Made by a program: the position numbers and the translations under genes. The notes below the pieces were generated by a model. The model did no database searches. It was not told the origin of the DNA and saw only the letters and a list, made by a program, of their open reading frames with translations. Positions 1-45,859 of a DNA stretch of 45,859 nucleotides are shown piece by piece; the stretch's first letter is position 1; each line of letters opens with the position of its first letter. The stretch is from a virus. Its lineage: Duplodnaviria > Heunggongvirae > Uroviricota > Caudoviricetes. The stretch lies in the IMG/VR virus record IMGVR_UViG_2718218168_000002. One strand, written 5' to 3'.

Positions 1-1248
1 ATGGCACTGAATATTCCATTCAGAAATGCGTACTATCGTTTTGCATCCAGTTACTCATTTCTCTTTTTTATTTCCTGGTCGCTGTGGTGGTCGTTATACG
101 CTATTTGGCTGAAAGGACATCTAGGGTTGACAGGGACGGAATTAGGTACACTTTATTCGGTCAACCAGTTTACCAGCATTCTATTTATGATGTTCTACGG
201 CATCGTTCAGGATAAACTCGGTCTGAAGAAACCGCTCATCTGGTGTATGAGTTTCATCCTGGTCTTGACCGGACCGTTTATGATTTACGTTTATGAACCG
301 TTACTGCAAAGCAATTTTTCTGTAGGTCTAATTCTGGGGGCGCTATTTTTTGGCTTGGGGTATCTGGCGGGATGCGGTTTGCTTGATAGCTTCACCGAAA
401 AAATGGCGCGAAATTTTCATTTCGAATATGGAACAGCGCGCGCCTGGGGATCTTTTGGCTATGCTATTGGCGCGTTCTTTGCCGGCATATTTTTTAGTAT
501 CAGTCCCCATATCAACTTCTGGTTGGTCTCGCTATTTGGCGCTGTATTTATGATGATCAACATGCGTTTTAAAGATAAGGATCACCAGTGCGTAGCGGCA
601 GATGCGGGAGGGGTAAAAAAAGAGGATTTTATCGCAGTTTTCAAGGATCGAAACTTCTGGGTTTTCGTCATATTTATTGTGGGGACGTGGTCTTTCTATA
701 ACATTTTTGATCAACAACTTTTTCCTGTCTTTTATGCAGGTTTATTCGAATCACACGATGTAGGAACGCGCCTGTATGGTTATCTCAACTCATTCCAGGT
801 GGTACTCGAAGCGCTGTGCATGGCGATTATTCCTTTCTTTGTGAATCGGGTAGGGCCAAAAAATGCATTACTTATCGGAGTTGTGATTATGGCGTTGCGT
901 ATCCTTTCCTGCGCGCTGTTCGTTAACCCCTGGATTATTTCATTAGTGAAGTTGTTACATGCCATTGAGGTTCCACTTTGTGTCATATCCGTCTTCAAAT
1001 ACAGCGTGGCAAACTTTGATAAGCGCCTGTCGTCGACGATCTTTCTGATTGGTTTTCAAATTGCCAGTTCGCTTGGGATTGTGCTGCTTTCAACGCCGAC
1101 TGGGATACTCTTTGACCACGCAGGCTACCAGACAGTTTTCTTCGCAATTTCGGGTATTGTCTGCCTGATGTTGCTATTTGGCATTTTCTTCTTGAGTAAA
1201 AAACGCGAGCAAATAGTTATGGAAACGCCTGTACCTTCAGCAATATAG
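1..1248 (+). CDS. cscB: Sucrose:H+ symporter, LacY-family MFS permease
   Basis: 415-aa ORF with a 12-TM-like hydrophobic profile; N-terminus MALNIPFRNAYYRFASSYSFLFF recalled as E. coli CscB / oligosaccharide:H+ symporter family. Not database-verified. Confidence 0.8.
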   Translation: MALNIPFRNAYYRFASSYSFLFFISWSLWWSLYAIWLKGHLGLTGTELGTLYSVNQFTSILFMMFYGIVQDKLGLKKPLIWCMSFILVLTGPFMIYVYEPLLQSNFSVGLILGALFFGLGYLAGCGLLDSFTEKMARNFHFEYGTARAWGSFGYAIGAFFAGIFFSISPHINFWLVSLFGAVFMMINMRFKDKDHQCVAADAGGVKKEDFIAVFKDRNFWVFVIFIVGTWSFYNIFDQQLFPVFYAGLFESHDVGTRLYGYLNSFQVVLEALCMAIIPFFVNRVGPKNALLIGVVIMALRILSCALFVNPWIISLVKLLHAIEVPLCVISVFKYSVANFDKRLSSTIFLIGFQIASSLGIVLLSTPTGILFDHAGYQTVFFAISGIVCLMLLFGIFFLSKKREQIVMETPVPSAI

Positions 1249-6433: not shown

Positions 6434-6566
6434 TTTTGGGAACTCCTGGCTGATTAAGTACGTCGATGAGTCGTTTCCATCCGTCACGTAATTTGCGGGT
6501 GATTCGTTCAAGTAAAGATTCGGAAGGGCAGCCAGCAACAGGCCACCCTGCAATGGCATATTGCAT
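6426..6566 (-). CDS. cIII: CIII-like protease inhibitor
   Basis: 46-aa ORF below the track cutoff: MQYAIAGWPVAGCPSESLLERITRKLRDGWKRLIDVLNQPGVPKNG, matching recalled lambda CIII; AAGGAG Shine-Dalgarno upstream. Confidence 0.65.
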   Translation of the reverse strand: MQYAIAGWPVAGCPSESLLERITRKLRDGWKRLIDVLNQPGVPKNG

Positions 6567-6645
6567 GGTGTGCTCCTTATTTATACATAACGAAAACGCC
6601 TCAAGTGAAGCGTTATTGGTATGCGGTAAAGCCGCGCTCAGGCGG

Positions 6646-6894
6646 CTACTCTATTTCTTCTTCGAATGATTTTATTAGCCGGTCAATAACATCATCTGTT
6701 TCAATATCATTTCCGTCTGATTGCTTTAATACGTCTATTGATTCTGCTGCGGTAAATTCCATCGCTGTGAGAAACTCGACAATTGCACACTCAACGACAT
6801 GTCGTTCTTCATCTGTACGACATGAGATAAAAGAGCATTTAATTGCTGTTATTACTTTTTGTTTAAGTTCTGCAGGATAATCAGTTTTTATCAT
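6646..6894 (-). CDS. Hypothetical phage protein
   Basis: 82-aa acidic ORF in the pL operon, with GGAG before the ATG. Confidence 0.45.
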   Translation of the reverse strand: MIKTDYPAELKQKVITAIKCSFISCRTDEERHVVECAIVEFLTAMEFTAAESIDVLKQSDGNDIETDDVIDRLIKSFEEEIE

Positions 6895-6907
6895 CGTTTA
6901 CTCCGTC

Positions 6908-6935
6908 AAAAAAAATCGCCCTCACACTGGAGGGC
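6908..6935 (-). terminator. Rho-independent terminator in the leftward operon (tL-like)
   Basis: Minus strand reads GCCCTC-cagtgt-GAGGGC followed by an 8-nt T run (plus-strand A run 6908-6915). Confidence 0.55.
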
Positions 6936-7071
6936 AAAGAAGATTTCCAATAATCAGAACAAGTCGGCTCCTGTTTGGTTACGAGCGACATTGCTCCGTG
7001 TATTCACTCGTTGGAATGAATACACAGTGCAGTGTTTATTCTGTTGTTTATGCCAAAGATAAAGGCCACTA

Positions 7072-7169
7072 TCAGGCAGCTTTGTTGTTCTGTTTACCAA
7101 GTTCTCTGGCAATCATTGCCGCCGCTCGTAATGCCCACACCATTGATTCTTATCAATAGTCGCAGTCAT
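7072..7169 (-). pseudogene. ral: ral (restriction alleviation) remnant with internal deletion and frameshift
   Basis: N-terminal frame gives MTATIDKNQWCG then a stop after 18 codons; a second frame gives WALRAAAMIARELGKQNNKAA. Both match recalled lambda Ral termini; about 100 nt of the middle are missing. Confidence 0.45.
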
Positions 7170-7293
7170 ACGGATAGTCCTGGTATTGTTCCATCACATC
7201 CTGCGGATGCTCTTCGAACTCTTCAAATTCTTCTCCCATATCTCACCTCAAATAAGTGGTTTGCTGCGAAAGTAAATACGCTTAAGTTACCTG

Positions 7294-7431
7294 TTATTTA
7301 TCCCACCAAGTTCCGTATCTATCTATCCAGTTACACCAATCATCGACACTCCATTTTGTTGTGTCGCATTTTGGCAACTGGCATGAATATCTACCTTCTT
7401 TGTAAAGTCGGCGTTTGACTTTCTTGAGCAT
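7294..7431 (-). CDS. Small Cys-containing protein immediately downstream of N
   Basis: 45-aa ORF MLKKVKRRLYKEGRYSCQLPKCDTTKWSVDDWCNWIDRYGTWWDK, with GAGGTGAG Shine-Dalgarno; below the track length cutoff. Confidence 0.35.
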   Translation of the reverse strand: MLKKVKRRLYKEGRYSCQLPKCDTTKWSVDDWCNWIDRYGTWWDK

Positions 7432-7439
7432 GGCTCACC

Positions 7440-7745
7440 TCAATCGTAATAAGCTGGAATTGATTTTCCGCGTTGCTTCTGGCGGCCTGAGCATGTCACA
7501 CCCATTTCACTGCGTGGCTTGCGGTAGTAAATGCGATTCTGTTTACTCTCGACTTCTTCTGCCTTCTTGCAGCGAAGGCTTCCGAGTGATGCTGCTTTAT
7601 CTGCTCTGACGCAACCAGAGAGCTTTAGCGCAATTTTTCGTGCCAGTCGCTGCTCTTGCATTGCCTGTTCACGTTGAGCCTGTCTGCGTGCTCTGCGGCG
7701 ATTTCTGGCGTTATCGTCAGCCAGATATGTAATGACTACTGTCAT
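7440..7745 (-). CDS. N: N-like transcription antitermination protein
   Basis: 101-aa basic ORF with an arginine-rich N-terminal motif (ARNRRRARRQAQRE) and C-terminus GVTCSGRQKQRGKSIPAYYD resembling lambda N; first gene downstream of pL. Confidence 0.7.
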   Translation of the reverse strand: MTVVITYLADDNARNRRRARRQAQREQAMQEQRLARKIALKLSGCVRADKAASLGSLRCKKAEEVESKQNRIYYRKPRSEMGVTCSGRQKQRGKSIPAYYD

Positions 7746-7894: not shown

Positions 7895-7940
7895 TGCCAA
7901 TCTGTTCCGTTTGGCTTCCAGCTTCCTGCTGATGTGTTTA

Positions 7941-8003
7941 GTATCACCGCTAGTGGTATGCGTGTCAACACCGCCAGAGATAATTTATCACCGCAGATGG
8001 TTA
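7941..8003 (-). promoter_or_regulatory. pL promoter with oL1-oL3 operators (lambda-type)
   Basis: Minus strand TTGACA (7964-7969), 17-nt spacer, GATACT (7941-7946); operator-like 17-mers tatcaccgctagtggta, caacaccgccagagata and tatcaccgcagatggtt. Confidence 0.8.
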
Positions 8004-8191: not shown

Positions 8192-9064
8192 TTATTTAAT
8201 TTCTTTTTCCGGTAAATACATTGTCATTTGAACAGGTTTCTTTCCATAGTGTTGAGCAACTCGACTTCTTAGCTCATGCATGGTGTCGCATGTTTTTGCG
8301 ACCCCAATAACCTCCCAGCACCTTGATACAAGCTGCCTTACACCTAGGTTCTCGGTTAACTGTCTATGCCAGTGAACTCCTGCCGCAGGCTTGTTTTCTT
8401 TAAGATATTTAGCCACATCTTCGTCAAGAGTGTCATAAATTAACTCTATAACTAATTTCCCCCACCATTTGGGCCTTGATTGCAATGGGGTACTCCATCC
8501 TGTCAATCTACCAAATTCTTCCCATAACTCATCAGGAAATGTTTTTTCCCATGCTCTTAGTTCCTCAGCGATGAACGCCCTGAGTTTTACTTGGAGAGCA
8601 TCCTCTGCGCGCTCATACTGATACCCAGTAGCCTCATCAATTAGAGCATCTAACCCAGTCCTGGTTAAACCTGCTGTTAATACAGCACATTTAATTGCTA
8701 TTTCTCGCTGTCTATCTGTCAATGGCGCGCCTTTGTATAGCGCCTGTACATAGCCGCGACAAATCAATTCAAATTGCTCAGTCTTAAGTCCTTGGCTTTT
8801 AAATTGGGTTCCTGGTATGGAAAACTCTATGAGTTCGGCCAGGACTAAGTCTTTGTCTATAAAGCCATTAAGTGAGCTAACGCCAATAAATTTAGCCAGG
8901 TCTCCTGACTCCGCATTGGCAATTGCTTTTACAGTTGCTCGCAAAGCTATAACACGATGTCCAGTGTCAAGCACATAGCAATCAATACTTTCACCACCTA
9001 AGTCGATCTTCCCCTTCCATTTTGCGAATGGGGATGGTAATTGCTGTAAATCATCATGTTCCAT
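8192..9064 (-). CDS. Uncharacterised cargo protein in the rexAB slot of the immunity operon
   Basis: 290-aa product from the internal ATG (MEHDDLQQLPSPFAKWKGK...) 32 nt after the cI stop; the full track ORF 8192..9160 would overlap cI by 65 nt. No similarity to RexA/RexB recalled. Confidence 0.6.
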   Translation of the reverse strand: MEHDDLQQLPSPFAKWKGKIDLGGESIDCYVLDTGHRVIALRATVKAIANAESGDLAKFIGVSSLNGFIDKDLVLAELIEFSIPGTQFKSQGLKTEQFELICRGYVQALYKGAPLTDRQREIAIKCAVLTAGLTRTGLDALIDEATGYQYERAEDALQVKLRAFIAEELRAWEKTFPDELWEEFGRLTGWSTPLQSRPKWWGKLVIELIYDTLDEDVAKYLKENKPAAGVHWHRQLTENLGVRQLVSRCWEVIGVAKTCDTMHELRSRVAQHYGKKPVQMTMYLPEKEIK

Positions 9065-9095
9065 TAATTGAATTACCCTTTTTTGCTGCGTTGAA

Positions 9096-9812
<717 letters not shown>

Positions 9813-16495: not shown

Positions 16496-16586
16496 TTGAC
16501 GCGATGATTTATTCGGGGCTATATTCCCAGCACGCCAGCAAAATCTGGCGTCGGGATTGGAACCCCGGATAGAGACCGCGACAAAC

Positions 16587-16610
16587 ACACGCCGCGAGCG
16601 TGTTTTTTAT
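16587..16610 (+). terminator. Rho-independent terminator upstream of the ORF6N moron
   Basis: Stem acacgc/gcgtgt with loop cgcga, followed by tttttatt. Confidence 0.5.
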
Positions 16611-16769
16611 TGTCGTATGCACGCGCACATCTGAATTATGGTGGGGCGCATGGGGGAGCTGAAAAGCTCGCCGGTCGGTTTCCCGGTAGTTCCAACCCTG
16701 TGCGTCTCACCACCCGATGATTGGAACCTGACGGTGGTGATAGTTTAGAAACCACCAGAGGGCGTCATT

Positions 16770-33004: not shown

Positions 33005-33445
33005 ATGTCTACCTATTCTTTTATGGATGTCACTGCGACGCTGACCGGGCCGACCGGTTCGATTGACCTCGGGTACGGTTCTGCAAGTTCTGAAGAGGGG
33101 ATTGTGGTTGCGATGGGCGGTCCTAAAAACACCATGACCATCGGTGCTGATGGCGAAGTGATGCACAGTCTCCATGCAGATAAAAGCGGGACGATTACCG
33201 TTAACCTTCTGAAGACATCACCGACAAATAAAAAATTGTCGCTGGCGTATAACGCACAGAGCCAGTCTTCTGCCACATGGGGGAATAACGTTATTGTGAT
33301 CCGAAACAAGGTCAGCGGCGACATCATCACGGCACGTAGTGTTGCGTTCCAGAAACAACCGGATAATGCCAACGCTAAAACCGGTAATACGATGCCGTGG
33401 GTGTTTGACTGCGGCAAGATTGACCAGGTTCTCGGGGAGTTTTAA
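33005..33445 (+). CDS. Tail tube-like protein (DUF3277-like)
   Basis: 146-aa ORF between the sheath-like and chaperone genes. Confidence 0.5.
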   Translation: MSTYSFMDVTATLTGPTGSIDLGYGSASSEEGIVVAMGGPKNTMTIGADGEVMHSLHADKSGTITVNLLKTSPTNKKLSLAYNAQSQSSATWGNNVIVIRNKVSGDIITARSVAFQKQPDNANAKTGNTMPWVFDCGKIDQVLGEF

Positions 33446-33448
33446 TAC

Positions 33449-33901
33449 ATGGAATTCGAAATCAAAGGCGTGAAATATCGCGCGGCAAAACTCAGCGTTT
33501 TTGATCAGCTGAAAGTGACCCGCAAACTTCTGCCTGTGCTGGCAGGAATGATGTCAGATTTCGGGAGCATTCGCTCCCGTTTGCCTGCTGATGGCAAAAT
33601 CGACACCGTGAAATTCGAGCAGTTAAAACCGGTGTTTGAAACCATGCTCCCGCGTATCGCTGAGGAACTGTCTTCCCTGACCGAAGATGACACCAGTGCG
33701 ATTATTCATCCCTGTCTTGCGGTGGTATCGCGGCGTCATATGGACGGATGGGTTCCGGTATTTACCCAGGGCGAACTGATGTTTGATGATATTGACTTGC
33801 TGGTCATGCTGCATCTGGTGGCGCGGGTGGTCGCCGATTCGCTGGGAAATTTTTTGCCTACACCCCTTACCAGCACGACGCAGAGCCTGCAACAGGGCTG
33901 A
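33449..33901 (+). CDS. Tail assembly chaperone (short form)
   Basis: 150-aa ORF directly upstream of the tape measure gene; slippery heptamer near its 3-prime end with an open -1 frame continuing to 34089. Confidence 0.5.
   Translation: MEFEIKGVKYRAAKLSVFDQLKVTRKLLPVLAGMMSDFGSIRSRLPADGKIDTVKFEQLKPVFETMLPRIAEELSSLTEDDTSAIIHPCLAVVSRRHMDGWVPVFTQGELMFDDIDLLVMLHLVARVVADSLGNFLPTPLTSTTQSLQQG
33850..33856 (+). other. Candidate -1 programmed ribosomal frameshift site (T TTT TTG)
   Basis: Heptamer in X XXY YYZ register relative to the chaperone frame; the -1 frame is open from 33850 to the stop at 34087-34089. Confidence 0.5.
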
Positions 33902-34078: not shown

Positions 34079-36067
34079 ATGAACGCTGAAACTATTAAAG
34101 ATTTCCTCGTCTCGCTTGGCTTCAGTGTGGATGATGCAGGAGCGAAAAAGTTCGGTTCTGTCCTCGCCGGTACAACTGCAAATGTCATCAAAATGGGACT
34201 GGCCGTTGAAGGAGCTGCGCTGTCCGTGGTGGCCTTCACGGCTAAGATCGCCTCCGGCCTGGATAATCTTTACCGGGCGTCACAGCGCACCGGCGCGACA
34301 GTCCAGGGAATTCAGTCTATTGGCTATGCGGTTTCGCAGGTTGGCGGCAGCGTGGACGCGGCGCGAACCTCTCTGGAAAGCCTCTCCCGGTTTGTTCGTA
34401 ACAATCCCGGCGCGGAAGGCTTCCTGAATCGCCTGGGGGTACAGACACGGGATGCCAGCGGTAACATGCGTGACATGGCCGCTATTTTTACAGGTGTAGG
34501 CCAGAAGCTCAGCGGCATGCCGTATTACCGGGCTAACCAGTATGCGCAGATGCTAGGCATTGACGAAAATACCCTTATGGCGATGCGCCGGGGTGTGGGT
34601 GATTTCTCCGGGCAGTACAGCGCAATGGCGAAAGCTATCGGCTTCAATGCTGACGAGGCGGCCAGAAGCTCCAACAAATTCATGACCTCCCTGCGCGAGT
34701 TCGGCGCGATGGCAGGCATGGCCCGTGACAAAATCGGCTCTAATCTTGCTGGTGGTCTGGCGGGTTCGCTGGACACACTGCGCCGCCACATCCTCGATAA
34801 CTTCCCGCGCATCGAGCAGACCCTGACGAAAGCCATAAAAGGCATTCTGGCGATCGGAGACATCATCGGGCGGCTGTTCTTCAGGCTAATTGAGGGAACA
34901 TCCAGCCTTATCACCTGGTGGCAATCGCTGGATAAGCAAACGCGGGAGCTCATCTCGCTGTTTGGCGCGCTGACGATTGCGCTGCGCATTCTGAACAGTA
35001 CGTTCTGGATGTCGCCGATTGGCCTCATTACCGCGCTGGCGGCGGGGATTGCCCTTCTGTGGGAGGACTATCAGACCTGGAAGGAAGGCGGCGACAGCCT
35101 GATTGACTGGGGCAAGTGGAAGCCGGAGGTCGATGCCGCGCTGAAGATGGTTCGTGACCTGAAAGGGTCTGTTAATGAACTGGCGAAAGCGCTGGCGAAA
35201 CTGCTCAATATTGACCCCAAATCATGGTCCCTGAAGTGGGATTTCAGCAACTTCATCGACCAGATGGGCGAATTCAGCAAAATGCTGAACATGATCGCCG
35301 ACCTGCTCAACGCTATCAAAGATGGCCGCTGGGCTGATGCCGTCATCATCGGCAAACAGATACTTAATCAGGGCAGCGAAAATCCGTCAGCGATGCCGAT
35401 GGTTACAGACAGCGCTAACAGTACTGCCGACTGGATTAAAGAGCACTGGGGATTCGATCCCCGCAGTGTGGGCCGGACGGTACGCGGCTGGTTTGGTGAT
35501 GATGAGCCGGAACAATATGCACAGGCTACGAAACGAGGAGAACGGAATAACAATCCGGGAAACCTTAATTTTGCTGGTCAGGCAGGGGCTTCTCTTGAAC
35601 GCCCGGGCGGGCGATTTGCCAGATTTGAAACTGCTTTTGATGGATTACGGGCTCTTGCTCGTCAGTTAATGCTGTACGCCGGACGGGGAATAAACAGTGT
35701 GGAGAAAATTATCTCTACCTGGGCACCTGCGTCTGATAATAACAACACAACTGCGTATATCAGGGCTGTATCGCAACGACTGGGAGTGGATCCCCGGGCT
35801 GCCCTGAATATGAGCGATCCGCAAACCATGTCAGCATTGATGAGCAGCATTATCCAGCATGAGAATGGAAGAAATATCTATTCTCGAGAGCTGATTAATA
35901 AGGCTGCCGTGGCGGGAATTAGTGGCAAAATGACAGAGGTTAACCAGCAAAATACTTACCACATTTACGGTGGCGGAGATCCGCACGCTGTCGGTAATGA
36001 GGTTGCACGTCGGCAACAGTCTGCAAATGCTCAGGTCATGCGAAGTAATCAGGTGAGGGTGGGTTAG
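34079..36067 (+). CDS. Tail tape measure protein
   Basis: Long ORF after the chaperone; ATG at 34079 preceded by GAGAGAGGA (track ORF uses TTG at 34058); alpha-helical, Ala/Gly-rich N-terminal half. Confidence 0.7.
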   Translation: MNAETIKDFLVSLGFSVDDAGAKKFGSVLAGTTANVIKMGLAVEGAALSVVAFTAKIASGLDNLYRASQRTGATVQGIQSIGYAVSQVGGSVDAARTSLESLSRFVRNNPGAEGFLNRLGVQTRDASGNMRDMAAIFTGVGQKLSGMPYYRANQYAQMLGIDENTLMAMRRGVGDFSGQYSAMAKAIGFNADEAARSSNKFMTSLREFGAMAGMARDKIGSNLAGGLAGSLDTLRRHILDNFPRIEQTLTKAIKGILAIGDIIGRLFFRLIEGTSSLITWWQSLDKQTRELISLFGALTIALRILNSTFWMSPIGLITALAAGIALLWEDYQTWKEGGDSLIDWGKWKPEVDAALKMVRDLKGSVNELAKALAKLLNIDPKSWSLKWDFSNFIDQMGEFSKMLNMIADLLNAIKDGRWADAVIIGKQILNQGSENPSAMPMVTDSANSTADWIKEHWGFDPRSVGRTVRGWFGDDEPEQYAQATKRGERNNNPGNLNFAGQAGASLERPGGRFARFETAFDGLRALARQLMLYAGRGINSVEKIISTWAPASDNNNTTAYIRAVSQRLGVDPRAALNMSDPQTMSALMSSIIQHENGRNIYSRELINKAAVAGISGKMTEVNQQNTYHIYGGGDPHAVGNEVARRQQSANAQVMRSNQVRVG

Positions 36068-43457: not shown

Positions 43458-44615
43458 TCACTCCACCTTTTCATCAATCCAGTCCGCCCACCACTGCATC
43501 ATTTCTCTGCGCTTATCTAGATACTGAGCATGGTTGTAAATACCGCGCACAGATCCGCCGTTGGCATGTGCCAGTTGCACCTCAATCGCGTCAGCAGGCC
43601 ATTCGTGCTCGTTCATAATCGTGCTAAATTCATGCCTGAATCCGTGACCGCTTTCCAGACCCTCATAGCCGATTTGTTTGATCACAAGTAGAACCGCGTT
43701 CTCGCAGATTGGCTTCTTCTTATCGTTGCGCCCGGCAAAAACAAACTCTGATACTGGTTTGGTGATGGAGCTTAGCGTAGTGAGAAGTTCAACCACCTGG
43801 TCTGACATCGGGACCACATGAATTTTGCGTCCCTTCATCACACTGGCGTCGATGGTGATAATCCTGTTTTCAAAATCGACGTTCTTCCATAGCATGGAAC
43901 GAAGCTCTTTCGTTCTTAGGGCTGTGTAGCGTAAAACTTTGGTCGCAATGAGCGATACGATACTTCCTGAAAATGTTGCCAGTGCTTTGTTGAATGCCGG
44001 GATCTGGTCTGCAGGAAGAAACGGGAAGTTCTTCTTGCGGTATCCCTTCATGGCGTCTGCAAGGTCAGGTGCCGGGTTGTATTTAGCCCTTCCGGTGACA
44101 ATAGCGTAACGGAAAACTTCGCCGCATCTTCTGCGGGCTTTGTTGGCTCGCTCCATTGCACCGCGATCTTCAAATCTGCGGATTACTTCCAGCAGTTGCA
44201 TCGGCTCAATATCCTGAATTTCAAGGCTGCCGATGATAGGTAAAATGTCGTCATCAAACATTTTTGCAAGTTCATTTGCATAGCCTACTGACCAGACTTG
44301 CTTCTTGTGCTCGTACCATTCCTTGTAAATGGCGCTAAAGGAATTGTTGTTAGACGAAGCCTTTTTCGCTTTTACCGGATCGATGCCAACCGAGATGTCT
44401 TTCCTAGCGGTCCATGCTTTATCCCTTGCCTCCTGCAAAGTCATAAGCGGATATTTTCCGACGGTCAGGATTTTCTCTTTACCGTCAATCTTGTAGCGAA
44501 GCTGCCATACCTTTTTCCCGGATACAGGAACATAAAGGTACAGGCCATTACCATCGAGAAGGCGGTATGGTTTTTCTTTCGGCTTTGCTGCTTCAATCTG
44601 CTTAACGGTGAGCAT
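43458..44615 (-). CDS. intS: Tyrosine integrase (P4/KplE1 IntS type)
   Basis: Start placed at MLTVKQIEAAKPKEKPYRL (track ORF extends to 44651); C-terminal catalytic region HGFRHEF...HANGGSVRGIYNHAQY; adjacent to argW. Confidence 0.85.
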   Translation of the reverse strand: MLTVKQIEAAKPKEKPYRLLDGNGLYLYVPVSGKKVWQLRYKIDGKEKILTVGKYPLMTLQEARDKAWTARKDISVGIDPVKAKKASSNNNSFSAIYKEWYEHKKQVWSVGYANELAKMFDDDILPIIGSLEIQDIEPMQLLEVIRRFEDRGAMERANKARRRCGEVFRYAIVTGRAKYNPAPDLADAMKGYRKKNFPFLPADQIPAFNKALATFSGSIVSLIATKVLRYTALRTKELRSMLWKNVDFENRIITIDASVMKGRKIHVVPMSDQVVELLTTLSSITKPVSEFVFAGRNDKKKPICENAVLLVIKQIGYEGLESGHGFRHEFSTIMNEHEWPADAIEVQLAHANGGSVRGIYNHAQYLDKRREMMQWWADWIDEKVE

Positions 44616-44775
44616 GGGTAAAAATCCGGTGGGTAAAATTATTTTATCCACTTTTTACCCGTCATGGAGTGCGGCTGTCAACGATCTGACGCGAACCATG
44701 ACGAACCGTGAATATACGGAAGGCTTGATATTCAGGGGATTTTGCGGACTGGTACGGATGGGAGCGAACTGATAA

Positions 44776-44851
44776 ATGGTGTCCCCTGCAGGAATCGAAC
44801 CTGCAATTAGCCCTTAGGAGGGGCTCGTTATATCCATTTAACTAAGAGGAC
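44776..44851 (-). tRNA. argW: tRNA-Arg (anticodon CCU)
   Basis: Minus-strand cloverleaf: acceptor GTCCTCT/AGGGGAC, D stem GTTA/TAAC, anticodon stem AGCCC/GGGCT with loop CTCCTAA, T arm GCAGG-TTCGATT-CCTGC, discriminator A, CCA. Confidence 0.9.
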
Positions 44852-44926: not shown

Positions 44927-45859
44927 TTATGCTGGGTTTTTATCATTTTTCTTAATGTTTTCCGCACGTTCTGCTTTTTGGCGTGCTTCTGCTTTACGCT
45001 TGTTGCTCATGTCGTTACGAATCTGTGCATGACTCATTAACGCGAAGATAAAGGTGCCGCCGCAGATGTTCCCCGCTAAAGTAGGTAGTGCGAAGGGCCA
45101 GATGAAATCGCTCCAGTGCAGCGTGCCGTTAAACACCAGATAGAGGATTTCAACAGAACCGACAACGATGTGGGTGGTGTCACCCAGTGCAATAAGCCAG
45201 GTCATCAATATAATCACCACAATCTTTGCCGCACCCGCAGCAGGAAACATCCAAACCATAGTGGCGATCAGCCAGCCGGAAATGATCGCGTTGGCAAACA
45301 TCTCGCTGGGGGTGTTCTTCATCACATCCATGCCGATTTTGACAAATGCATCGCGAGTTTCTTCATTGAAGATAGGCATATATTCAAATGCCCATGCAGC
45401 AATACCTGTCCCGAGAATATTACCCAGCAGCACGACGCCCCATAATCGCATAAGTAAGCCGACGTTGCTCATTGTCGGTTTTTGCATGACGGGTAGTACC
45501 GCAGTCACGGTGTTTTCGGTAAATAATTGCTGGCGGGCCATAATGACGATAATAAAACCAAAGGTATAACCGAGATTCTCCAGTAAGAAGCTGCCTGGCA
45601 CTCCTTCCAGTTCGACATGAAATATCCCTTTTGCCAGTAGCGAAGCGCCCATCGACAGACCCGCCGCAATGGCTGACCACAGTAGCGCCATTGCGTCGCG
45701 TTCCAGCTCTTTTTCACCATCCTGGCGGATATGCTCATGAATTGCCATCGCCCGGGAGGGGAGTCGATCTTCATCTATTTCTATTTTTTTGCCGCGCTCT
45801 TTTTCTTCGCTCTCAACTTCAATTTCGTCGCTGTGTTGATCAATTTTGTCGTTGTCCAT
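44927..45859 (-). CDS. yfdC: Formate/nitrite-transporter-family inner membrane protein YfdC
   Basis: 310-aa ORF starting exactly at the window end; multi-TM with acidic N-terminus MDNDKIDQHSDEIEVESEEKERG; recalled as the K-12 neighbour of argW. Confidence 0.75.
   Translation of the reverse strand: MDNDKIDQHSDEIEVESEEKERGKKIEIDEDRLPSRAMAIHEHIRQDGEKELERDAMALLWSAIAAGLSMGASLLAKGIFHVELEGVPGSFLLENLGYTFGFIIVIMARQQLFTENTVTAVLPVMQKPTMSNVGLLMRLWGVVLLGNILGTGIAAWAFEYMPIFNEETRDAFVKIGMDVMKNTPSEMFANAIISGWLIATMVWMFPAAGAAKIVVIILMTWLIALGDTTHIVVGSVEILYLVFNGTLHWSDFIWPFALPTLAGNICGGTFIFALMSHAQIRNDMSNKRKAEARQKAERAENIKKNDKNPA

Follow-up and report, generated by a model that had tools for sequence, protein, structure and literature searches.

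A lambda-type ral remnant with a 103-bp internal deletion in an Escherichia coli prophage

The Ral protein of phage lambda acts on type IA restriction–modification systems such as EcoKI and EcoBI, whose restriction it alleviates and whose modification it enhances, as summarised in PMC12707154 from Zabeau 1980 and Loenen & Murray 1986. In the same summary, type IA systems are given as the only targets of Ral (PMC12707154). Translation of lambda ral from J02459 (34087-34287) gives MTTTIDKNQWCGQFKRCNGCKLQSECMVKPEEMFPVMEDGKYVDKWAIRTTAMIARELGKQNNKAA, a protein which opens with MTTTIDKNQWCG and closes with KWAIRTTAMIARELGKQNNKAA. Since a search of the PDB returned no Ral relative and no solved structure for the family, structural reasoning about this protein is limited to alignment. 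Here we describe a ral locus in the IMG/VR record IMGVR_UViG_2718218168_000002, the whole 45,859 nt of which is referred to below as the window.

The ral remnant and its place in the pL operon

Both strands of 7072-7169 were read, and translation of 7060-7172 in the three minus-strand frames yielded two pieces of Ral. The first, in one frame, is the peptide MTATIDKNQWCGHYERRQ (M-T-A-T-I-D-K-N-Q-W-C-G-H-Y-E-R-R-Q-stop), which runs from an ATG at 7169-7167 to a TGA at 7115-7113. The second, in a different frame, reads (M-V-)W-A-L-R-A-A-A-M-I-A-R-E-L-G-K-Q-N-N-K-A-A-stop with its stop at 7074-7072, and includes the terminal 21 Ral codons, WALRAAAMIARELGKQNNKAA. DNA alignment with lambda J02459 requires a single gap of exactly 103 nt, between flanks that are ~95% identical. 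When lambda, SfI, phi458 and Sf6 are aligned together with the window, this gap, which spans Ral codons 13-45 plus one base, is the sole difference in register. As 103 is 1 mod 3, the deletion is out of frame: translation from the native start would give a peptide of 18 residues, with the last 21 codons stranded in another frame. The preliminary description of this locus had placed the 12 N-terminal and about 21 C-terminal residues of Ral in different frames at 7072-7169, with about 100 nt missing between them. The translations bear this out at a level that chance would not give, the coordinates are exact, and the missing length can now be given precisely.

The homology of these segments to ral holds for both DNA and protein. 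A megablast search with 6880-7450 matched 383 phage records at 90-99% identity, lambda among them (E 1e-105); most of these matches were split into two pieces, and the flanks of the remnant were 94-97% identical to lambda-type ral loci. At the protein level, the 23-aa tail alone matches positions 46-66 of the 66 in the Pfam Ral profile PF11058 (E 4e-8, 33.1 bits, against a curated cut-off of 25 bits), a match that is confined to this part of the profile. Where a single ORF of about 59-67 codons would be expected of a Ral, the ORF that begins at the native ATG ends after 18. Descent from ral is nevertheless apparent from the DNA homology and from the location within the pL operon, where N/orf28 lie on one side and tL2a/cIII on the other, and the end of orf28 and the start of the remnant overlap in the way seen in lambda.

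The features of the locus and of its surroundings are collected in Table 1. As the preliminary description had stated, the neighbouring N, cIII and kil genes have been kept; all three are present and look intact from their PHROG and Pfam matches. The leftward early operon in which the remnant lies is otherwise complete, the pL-like promoter and the tL2a-like terminator included. The C-terminus of the N-like protein is 78% identical to Sf6 gp37. The spacer from ral to the terminator is conserved with lambda, and the homologous site in Sf6 is annotated as tL2A; an Rfam scan of 6900-7300 returned no RNA family. The cIII protein has 46 aa in the window and 54 aa in lambda (165-nt CDS, 33299-33463).

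Table 1. Positions of the ral remnant, its operon neighbours and the prophage boundaries in the window
Feature	Position	Strand	Remarks
ral remnant, whole	7072-7169	-	98 nt left of the 201 nt of lambda ral after internal loss of 103 nt
18-codon ORF from native ral start	7113-7169	-	Ral residues 1-12 (MTATIDKNQWCG) followed by HYERRQ out of frame and TGA
Deletion junction	7134-7138	-	alignment puts the break between 7138 and 7137
23-codon ORF MVWALRAAAMIARELGKQNNKAA	7072-7143	-	final 21 codons are Ral residues 46-66
pL-like promoter TTGACA-17-GATACT	7940-7968	-	from consensus scan only; would drive N, orf28, ral remnant and cIII
N-like antiterminator, 101 aa	7440-7745	-	arginine-rich NARNRRRARRQ; phrog_271, E 5e-36
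DUF5484 protein, 45 aa	7294-7431	-	like Sf6 gene 36; between N and orf28
orf28, intact	7153-7239	-	stop overlaps ral start; phrog_16060, E 8e-18; lambda 34271-34357, 28 aa
tL2a-like intrinsic terminator	6906-6937	-	GCCCTC..GAGGGC stem and T run; about 135 nt downstream of ral stop
82-aa ORF	6646-6894	-	just past the tL2a-like terminator; phrog_14587
cIII, 46 aa	6426-6566	-	PF02061, E 3e-30
cIII thermoregulator RNA, intact	6521-6579	-	over cIII start; RF01804, 88.5 bits
kil ORF, 79 aa	6320-6559	-	Lambda_Kil domain at residues 44-74; phrog_2461, E 9e-49; PF06301, E 6e-21
LacY-family (csc-type) permease	1-1248		host side, left
Prophage integrase	43458-44651		
tRNA-Arg(CCU) (argW)	44777-44851		
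Formate/nitrite-transporter-family gene	44927-45859		host side, right

The integrase, the tRNA-Arg(CCU) gene and the host genes at both ends show that the element is a prophage, and the window is a segment of the E. coli chromosome with a lambdoid prophage at argW. Mosaicism is evident in its early region, which is related to HK97, HK620, JEP4 and Stx phages. Between pL and a cI-like repressor (9096-9809), in the place of lambda rexAB, lies a gene for a 322-aa P63C-domain protein (8192-9160, minus strand; phrog_2384). Sf6 gene 33 is a separate 322-aa ORF, found after ral in Sf6 and in several prophages with the shortened ral. Further along, at 16519-16717 (plus strand), Rfam matches to the isrK Hfq-binding sRNA (78 bits), to C4 antisense RNA (71 bits) and to c4 a1/b1 target sites mark a P1/P7-type antisense immunity or antirepressor control module in this lambdoid prophage. 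The prophage with a shortened ral in E. coli 19SZHZ869Rt (L008) adjoins dsdC and torI, a neighbourhood which we take to adjoin argW on the K-12 map also. Taken together, we consider it highly probable that the locus is a pseudogene of a lambda-type ral at its normal pL-operon site, in an E. coli prophage at argW, produced by a 103-bp deletion.

The deletion and the residues it removed

The two ends of the deletion lie in similar stretches 103 nt apart, TGGACAATTCAAGCGA upstream (codons 10-15) and TGGGCAATACGAACGA downstream (codons 46-51), which in lambda are identical at 12/16 nt. Because both ends begin with TGG within this microhomology, the position of the junction is ambiguous by a few bases. 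We also considered an internal repeat element in ral, which was rejected, as shuffling mononucleotides gave a score as high as the best ungapped self-match of the lambda gene in 57% of cases, and shuffling codons in 71%. The similar stretches are a chance microhomology, and nothing unusual for a gene of 201 nt. From the position of the junction alone, we infer that replication slippage or microhomology-mediated illegitimate recombination may have joined the two imperfectly matching stretches, with loss of the 103 bp.

Conservation was assessed in an alignment of 20 full-length Rals of 64-67 aa, taken from Escherichia, Salmonella, Citrobacter, Kluyvera, Cronobacter, Providencia, Proteus, Pantoea and Erwinia. 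In lambda numbering, the residues invariant in all 20 are C11, F14, C17, L22, M27, V28, P30, G40, D44 and W46, followed by R49, T50, T51, M53, I54, R56 and L58; at least 90% conservation was seen for G19, C20, K21, E25, C26, E31, E32 and M33. Deletion of residues 13-45 takes away three of the four conserved cysteines together with the MVKPEEM/G40/D44 core, so that of the set by which a Ral would be recognised (C11, C17, C20 and C26 plus this core) C11 alone remains. The C-terminal segment W46-AIRTTAMIARE is present, out of frame with the start, and reads WALRAAAMIARE. Its substitutions I48L, T50A and T51A fall in invariant or nearly invariant columns, RAA replacing the RTT that is invariant among the 20 Rals. 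Replacement of T50 and T51 is as expected of a sequence that has ceased to be translated in the Ral frame.

Since the conserved cysteines and the core have been deleted and the RTT of the tail has become RAA, it is very likely, on this comparison of sequences, that active Ral has been lost from the prophage. Ral would push type IA enzymes such as EcoKI towards methylating unmodified DNA, and a prophage with the remnant would lack this activity. The loss of ral may have been selectively neutral.

The short allele in other genomes and the variety of its junctions

Complete genomes were queried with 81 nt centred on the junction, requiring a contiguous match at E <= 1e-18, a value that is unreachable by half-matches. 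The 103-nt deletion allele (the short allele) was present in 51 of 5,426 complete E. coli genomes, in every case on the chromosome, and the lambda-type intact middle segment in 793 of the 5,426. The short allele thus makes up ~6% of ral loci, or about 1 in 16 of the ral-carrying complete E. coli genomes. None of the complete genomes matched the junction of the window at 100%, the best match being 98.8%. The allele is also carried by the phages ECP1 (HK97-like) and E212 (P22-like), and a gap-tolerant pattern recovered it from 15 viral contigs, 6 metagenome contigs and 1 genome contig, every one with the 103-nt form. When other deletion sizes were sought with a pattern tolerating 87-117 nt, the 103-nt form alone was found. 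The exact 23-aa product of the window is encoded on 9 other NCBI E. coli contigs. The 103-nt deletion is a circulating allele common to many lambdoid phages and is not private to this prophage. The sole match among species-representative genomes was JAJXBQ010000280.1, a 3.5 kb contig with a short ral which resembles E. coli phage and is binned in a ‘Segatella copri’ MAG; its assignment to Segatella copri (Bacteroidota) is most likely a binning error, and the contig was set aside.

These counts bear directly on whether the deletion could be an artefact of assembly or sequencing, the true genome having an intact ral and the gap reflecting collapse between similar stretches. Although the deletion ends do sit in similar sequence, a microhomology of just 12/16 nt is far too short for assembly collapse. 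Two phage isolates and 22 other contigs have the identical deletion, as do 51 E. coli genomes that were finished independently, and the same product is encoded on the nine NCBI contigs; furthermore, the extra substitutions of the window allele (I48L, T50A, T51A) are those expected of an old, diverging allele. We regard such an artefact as extremely improbable. Less credible still is the reverse polarity, in which the short form would be ancestral and the 66-codon ral of lambda derived from it by insertion. All that speaks for this is that the long form contains two similar stretches. Full-length Ral is conserved in nine genera or more and has invariant residues within the supposedly extra segment, the short form is in the minority (51 vs 793 genomes), and its conserved ends lie in different frames, which is impossible for a functional ancestor. 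A deletion from a full-length ral is the reading that we retain.

The junctions themselves are not uniform. The 26 short alleles that we compared show seven junction sequences, which differ mostly at the four positions that separate the two copies of the microhomology. Ten short-allele contigs have the upstream state at the first distinguishing position (TGGACAAT...), and in E212 the upstream state is kept at all four before the junction continues as the downstream copy. Flanking haplotypes were defined by codon 7 (AAG/AAA/ACA), by a 6-nt deletion in the N-terminal part and by three markers that lie 33-50 nt beyond the junction. Short alleles occur on at least eight combinations of these markers, most of which were seen with full-length alleles as well, and they adjoin at least five different downstream modules.

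Recurrent deletion at the same microhomology, with different crossover points, would produce this pattern, and we put its probability at a little over one half. The pattern also fits a single old deletion that has spread and been reshuffled by exchange or mismatch correction against full-length alleles. We keep a single origin open for two reasons. Among full-length alleles, markers about 190 nt apart are nearly unlinked; and codon 7 AAG is enriched in the short alleles (19/21, vs 23/98 of the full-length alleles; Fisher 1e-8, although the samples are not independent). Either way, one 103-bp deletion with varied junctions conveniently illustrates deletion through microhomology, or else recombination on a very fine scale, as it occurs naturally in lambdoid phages.

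The same collection of alleles was used to consider whether the remnant might still be a gene, with either the 18-aa peptide or the 23-aa tail ORF being made and functional. The native start and the overlap with orf28 are retained, and the 18-codon frame is open in all 26 short alleles, but this openness is partly imposed, as the search pattern required the stop-containing sequence. Six substitutions in the 18-codon ORF are particular to short alleles; five of these are at third codon positions and four are silent. The numbers, however, are very small (binomial p about 0.04 with no caveats applied), two of the silent changes may derive from polymorphism among full-length alleles or from the other copy of the microhomology, and non-silent variants do exist, namely C11S (four contigs), Q13H (the window) and R16L (three). 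The tail ORF, for its part, has an ATG, exceeds the Pfam Ral cut-off and is called as a CDS by PGAP. Against this, direct reading finds no Shine–Dalgarno-like sequence before its ATG, it is without the invariant T50 and T51, and of the four cysteines of Ral just one remains in the whole remnant. A functional product from either ORF is therefore very improbable.

A more elaborate version would have recurrent deletion at a hotspot create a conserved and selected 18-codon ORF (M-T-T/A-T-I-D-K-N-Q-W-C-G-Q/H-Y-E-R-R-Q), translated from the ral start by coupling to orf28. The hints of selection arise because most of the short-allele-specific substitutions are silent in this frame and because the allele lies on many flank haplotypes. 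Were it true, the short allele would be a small new gene, or a regulatory uORF for the downstream pL genes; we think this highly doubtful, and continue to treat the short allele as a pseudogene.

Annotation, decay of ral and comparison with known systems

The short allele appears to have given rise to two kinds of annotation error. In PGAP/RefSeq, the 23-aa tail ORF is presented as an intact CDS for an ‘antirestriction Ral family protein’, e.g. WP_353654437.1 in NZ_CP080085, and not as a pseudogene; the stranded Ral tail ORF of L008 (5975-6046) is annotated in this way. In ECP1, it is the counterpart of the 82-aa ORF lying beyond the terminator in the window that bears the name ‘antirestriction protein ral’, and the PHROG of this protein is labelled ‘anti-restriction protein’. 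However, BLASTP shows no resemblance of the 82-aa protein to Ral (E 16), and the protein is ‘hypothetical’ in every named NCBI record examined. The anti-restriction or ral name on the 82-aa protein has probably slipped from the adjacent remnant, in ECP1 and then in the PHROG. Both mislabels inflate counts of anti-restriction genes in prophages. The 82-aa gene follows 6/23 short alleles vs 4/110 full-length alleles. We considered whether this neighbour might replace the function of Ral and rejected the idea, as the six include five ECP1-like contigs that are nearly the same, and the protein itself bears no relation to Ral.

Public proteomes contain many other damaged ral products. Some are frameshifted, e.g. 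...VDKWPMRRQ and ...MVKPGRNVSC..., and one viral contig has a 1-nt insertion in mid-ral. In SfI (1685-1864) and phi458, an AAA to TAA change at codon 60 results in a 59-aa Ral without the last seven residues; the short allele of ECP1 shares this TAA, and has a TAG in addition. Mosaic joints that replace the N-terminal half of Ral are also found, one form with 104 member sequences and another on 87 contigs. Many database Rals (P0060, P0063, P0065, P0068, P0069, P0073, P0078) have unrelated N-termini fused at about residue 28-38, the fusion points being KPEEMF or EDGKYVDK. This suggests that the boundaries of mosaic modules often fall inside ral.

With ~6% of the ral-bearing complete genomes having the deletion, and with many alleles broken in other ways, ral is clearly a gene that can often be dispensed with in nature. 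Such dispensability fits the narrow target range of Ral (type IA only) and its non-essential status. The biological weight of the remnant is accordingly small, a broken non-essential accessory gene in a resident prophage being expected gene decay. The short allele is confirmed as an ordinary pseudogene allele of a well-known gene, and its novelty is low. A literature search found nothing describing a 103-nt ral deletion allele, and the mildly new points are only the population frequency of the 103-bp deletion, its variable junction and the resulting annotation errors.

With respect to known systems, the restriction-alleviation function Lar/RalR of the Rac prophage is different from the PF11058 Ral considered here. 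Lar/RalR, too, was formerly named for restriction alleviation by a lambdoid prophage, and we take its protein family to be distinct from that of PF11058. RalR is described in PMC4041452 as the DNase toxin of a type I toxin–antitoxin pair. Also comparable are the other disrupted ral alleles (P0025, P0068, P0069, P0074, P0075), which likewise represent a broken accessory gene of enterobacterial prophages, but by lesions unlike that of the window: single-base frameshifts, premature stops and mosaic joints.

Other elements share the identical 103-nt deletion. ECP1 (KY979108) has it at the same microhomology, but its junction is the pure downstream copy TGGGCAATACGAACGAC, unlike that of the window. 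The junction of E212 (MZ043897) keeps the upstream copy for 15 nt (TGGACAATTCAAGCGGC), and that of the E. coli prophage in NZ_CP080085 is one base off the window (TGGGCAATACGAGCGGC vs TGGGCATTACGAGCGGC). In all three, the phage backbone and the downstream modules differ from those of the window. Finally, compared with lambda ral, the remnant has the same pL-operon locus, the same overlap with orf28, the same position upstream of tL2a and cIII, and ~95% DNA identity in the retained parts, with residues 1-12 and 46-66 still recognisable. It differs from lambda ral in the 103 nt that are missing (residues 13-45), in the shifted frame, in the loss of three of the four cysteines and in the changed T50/T51.
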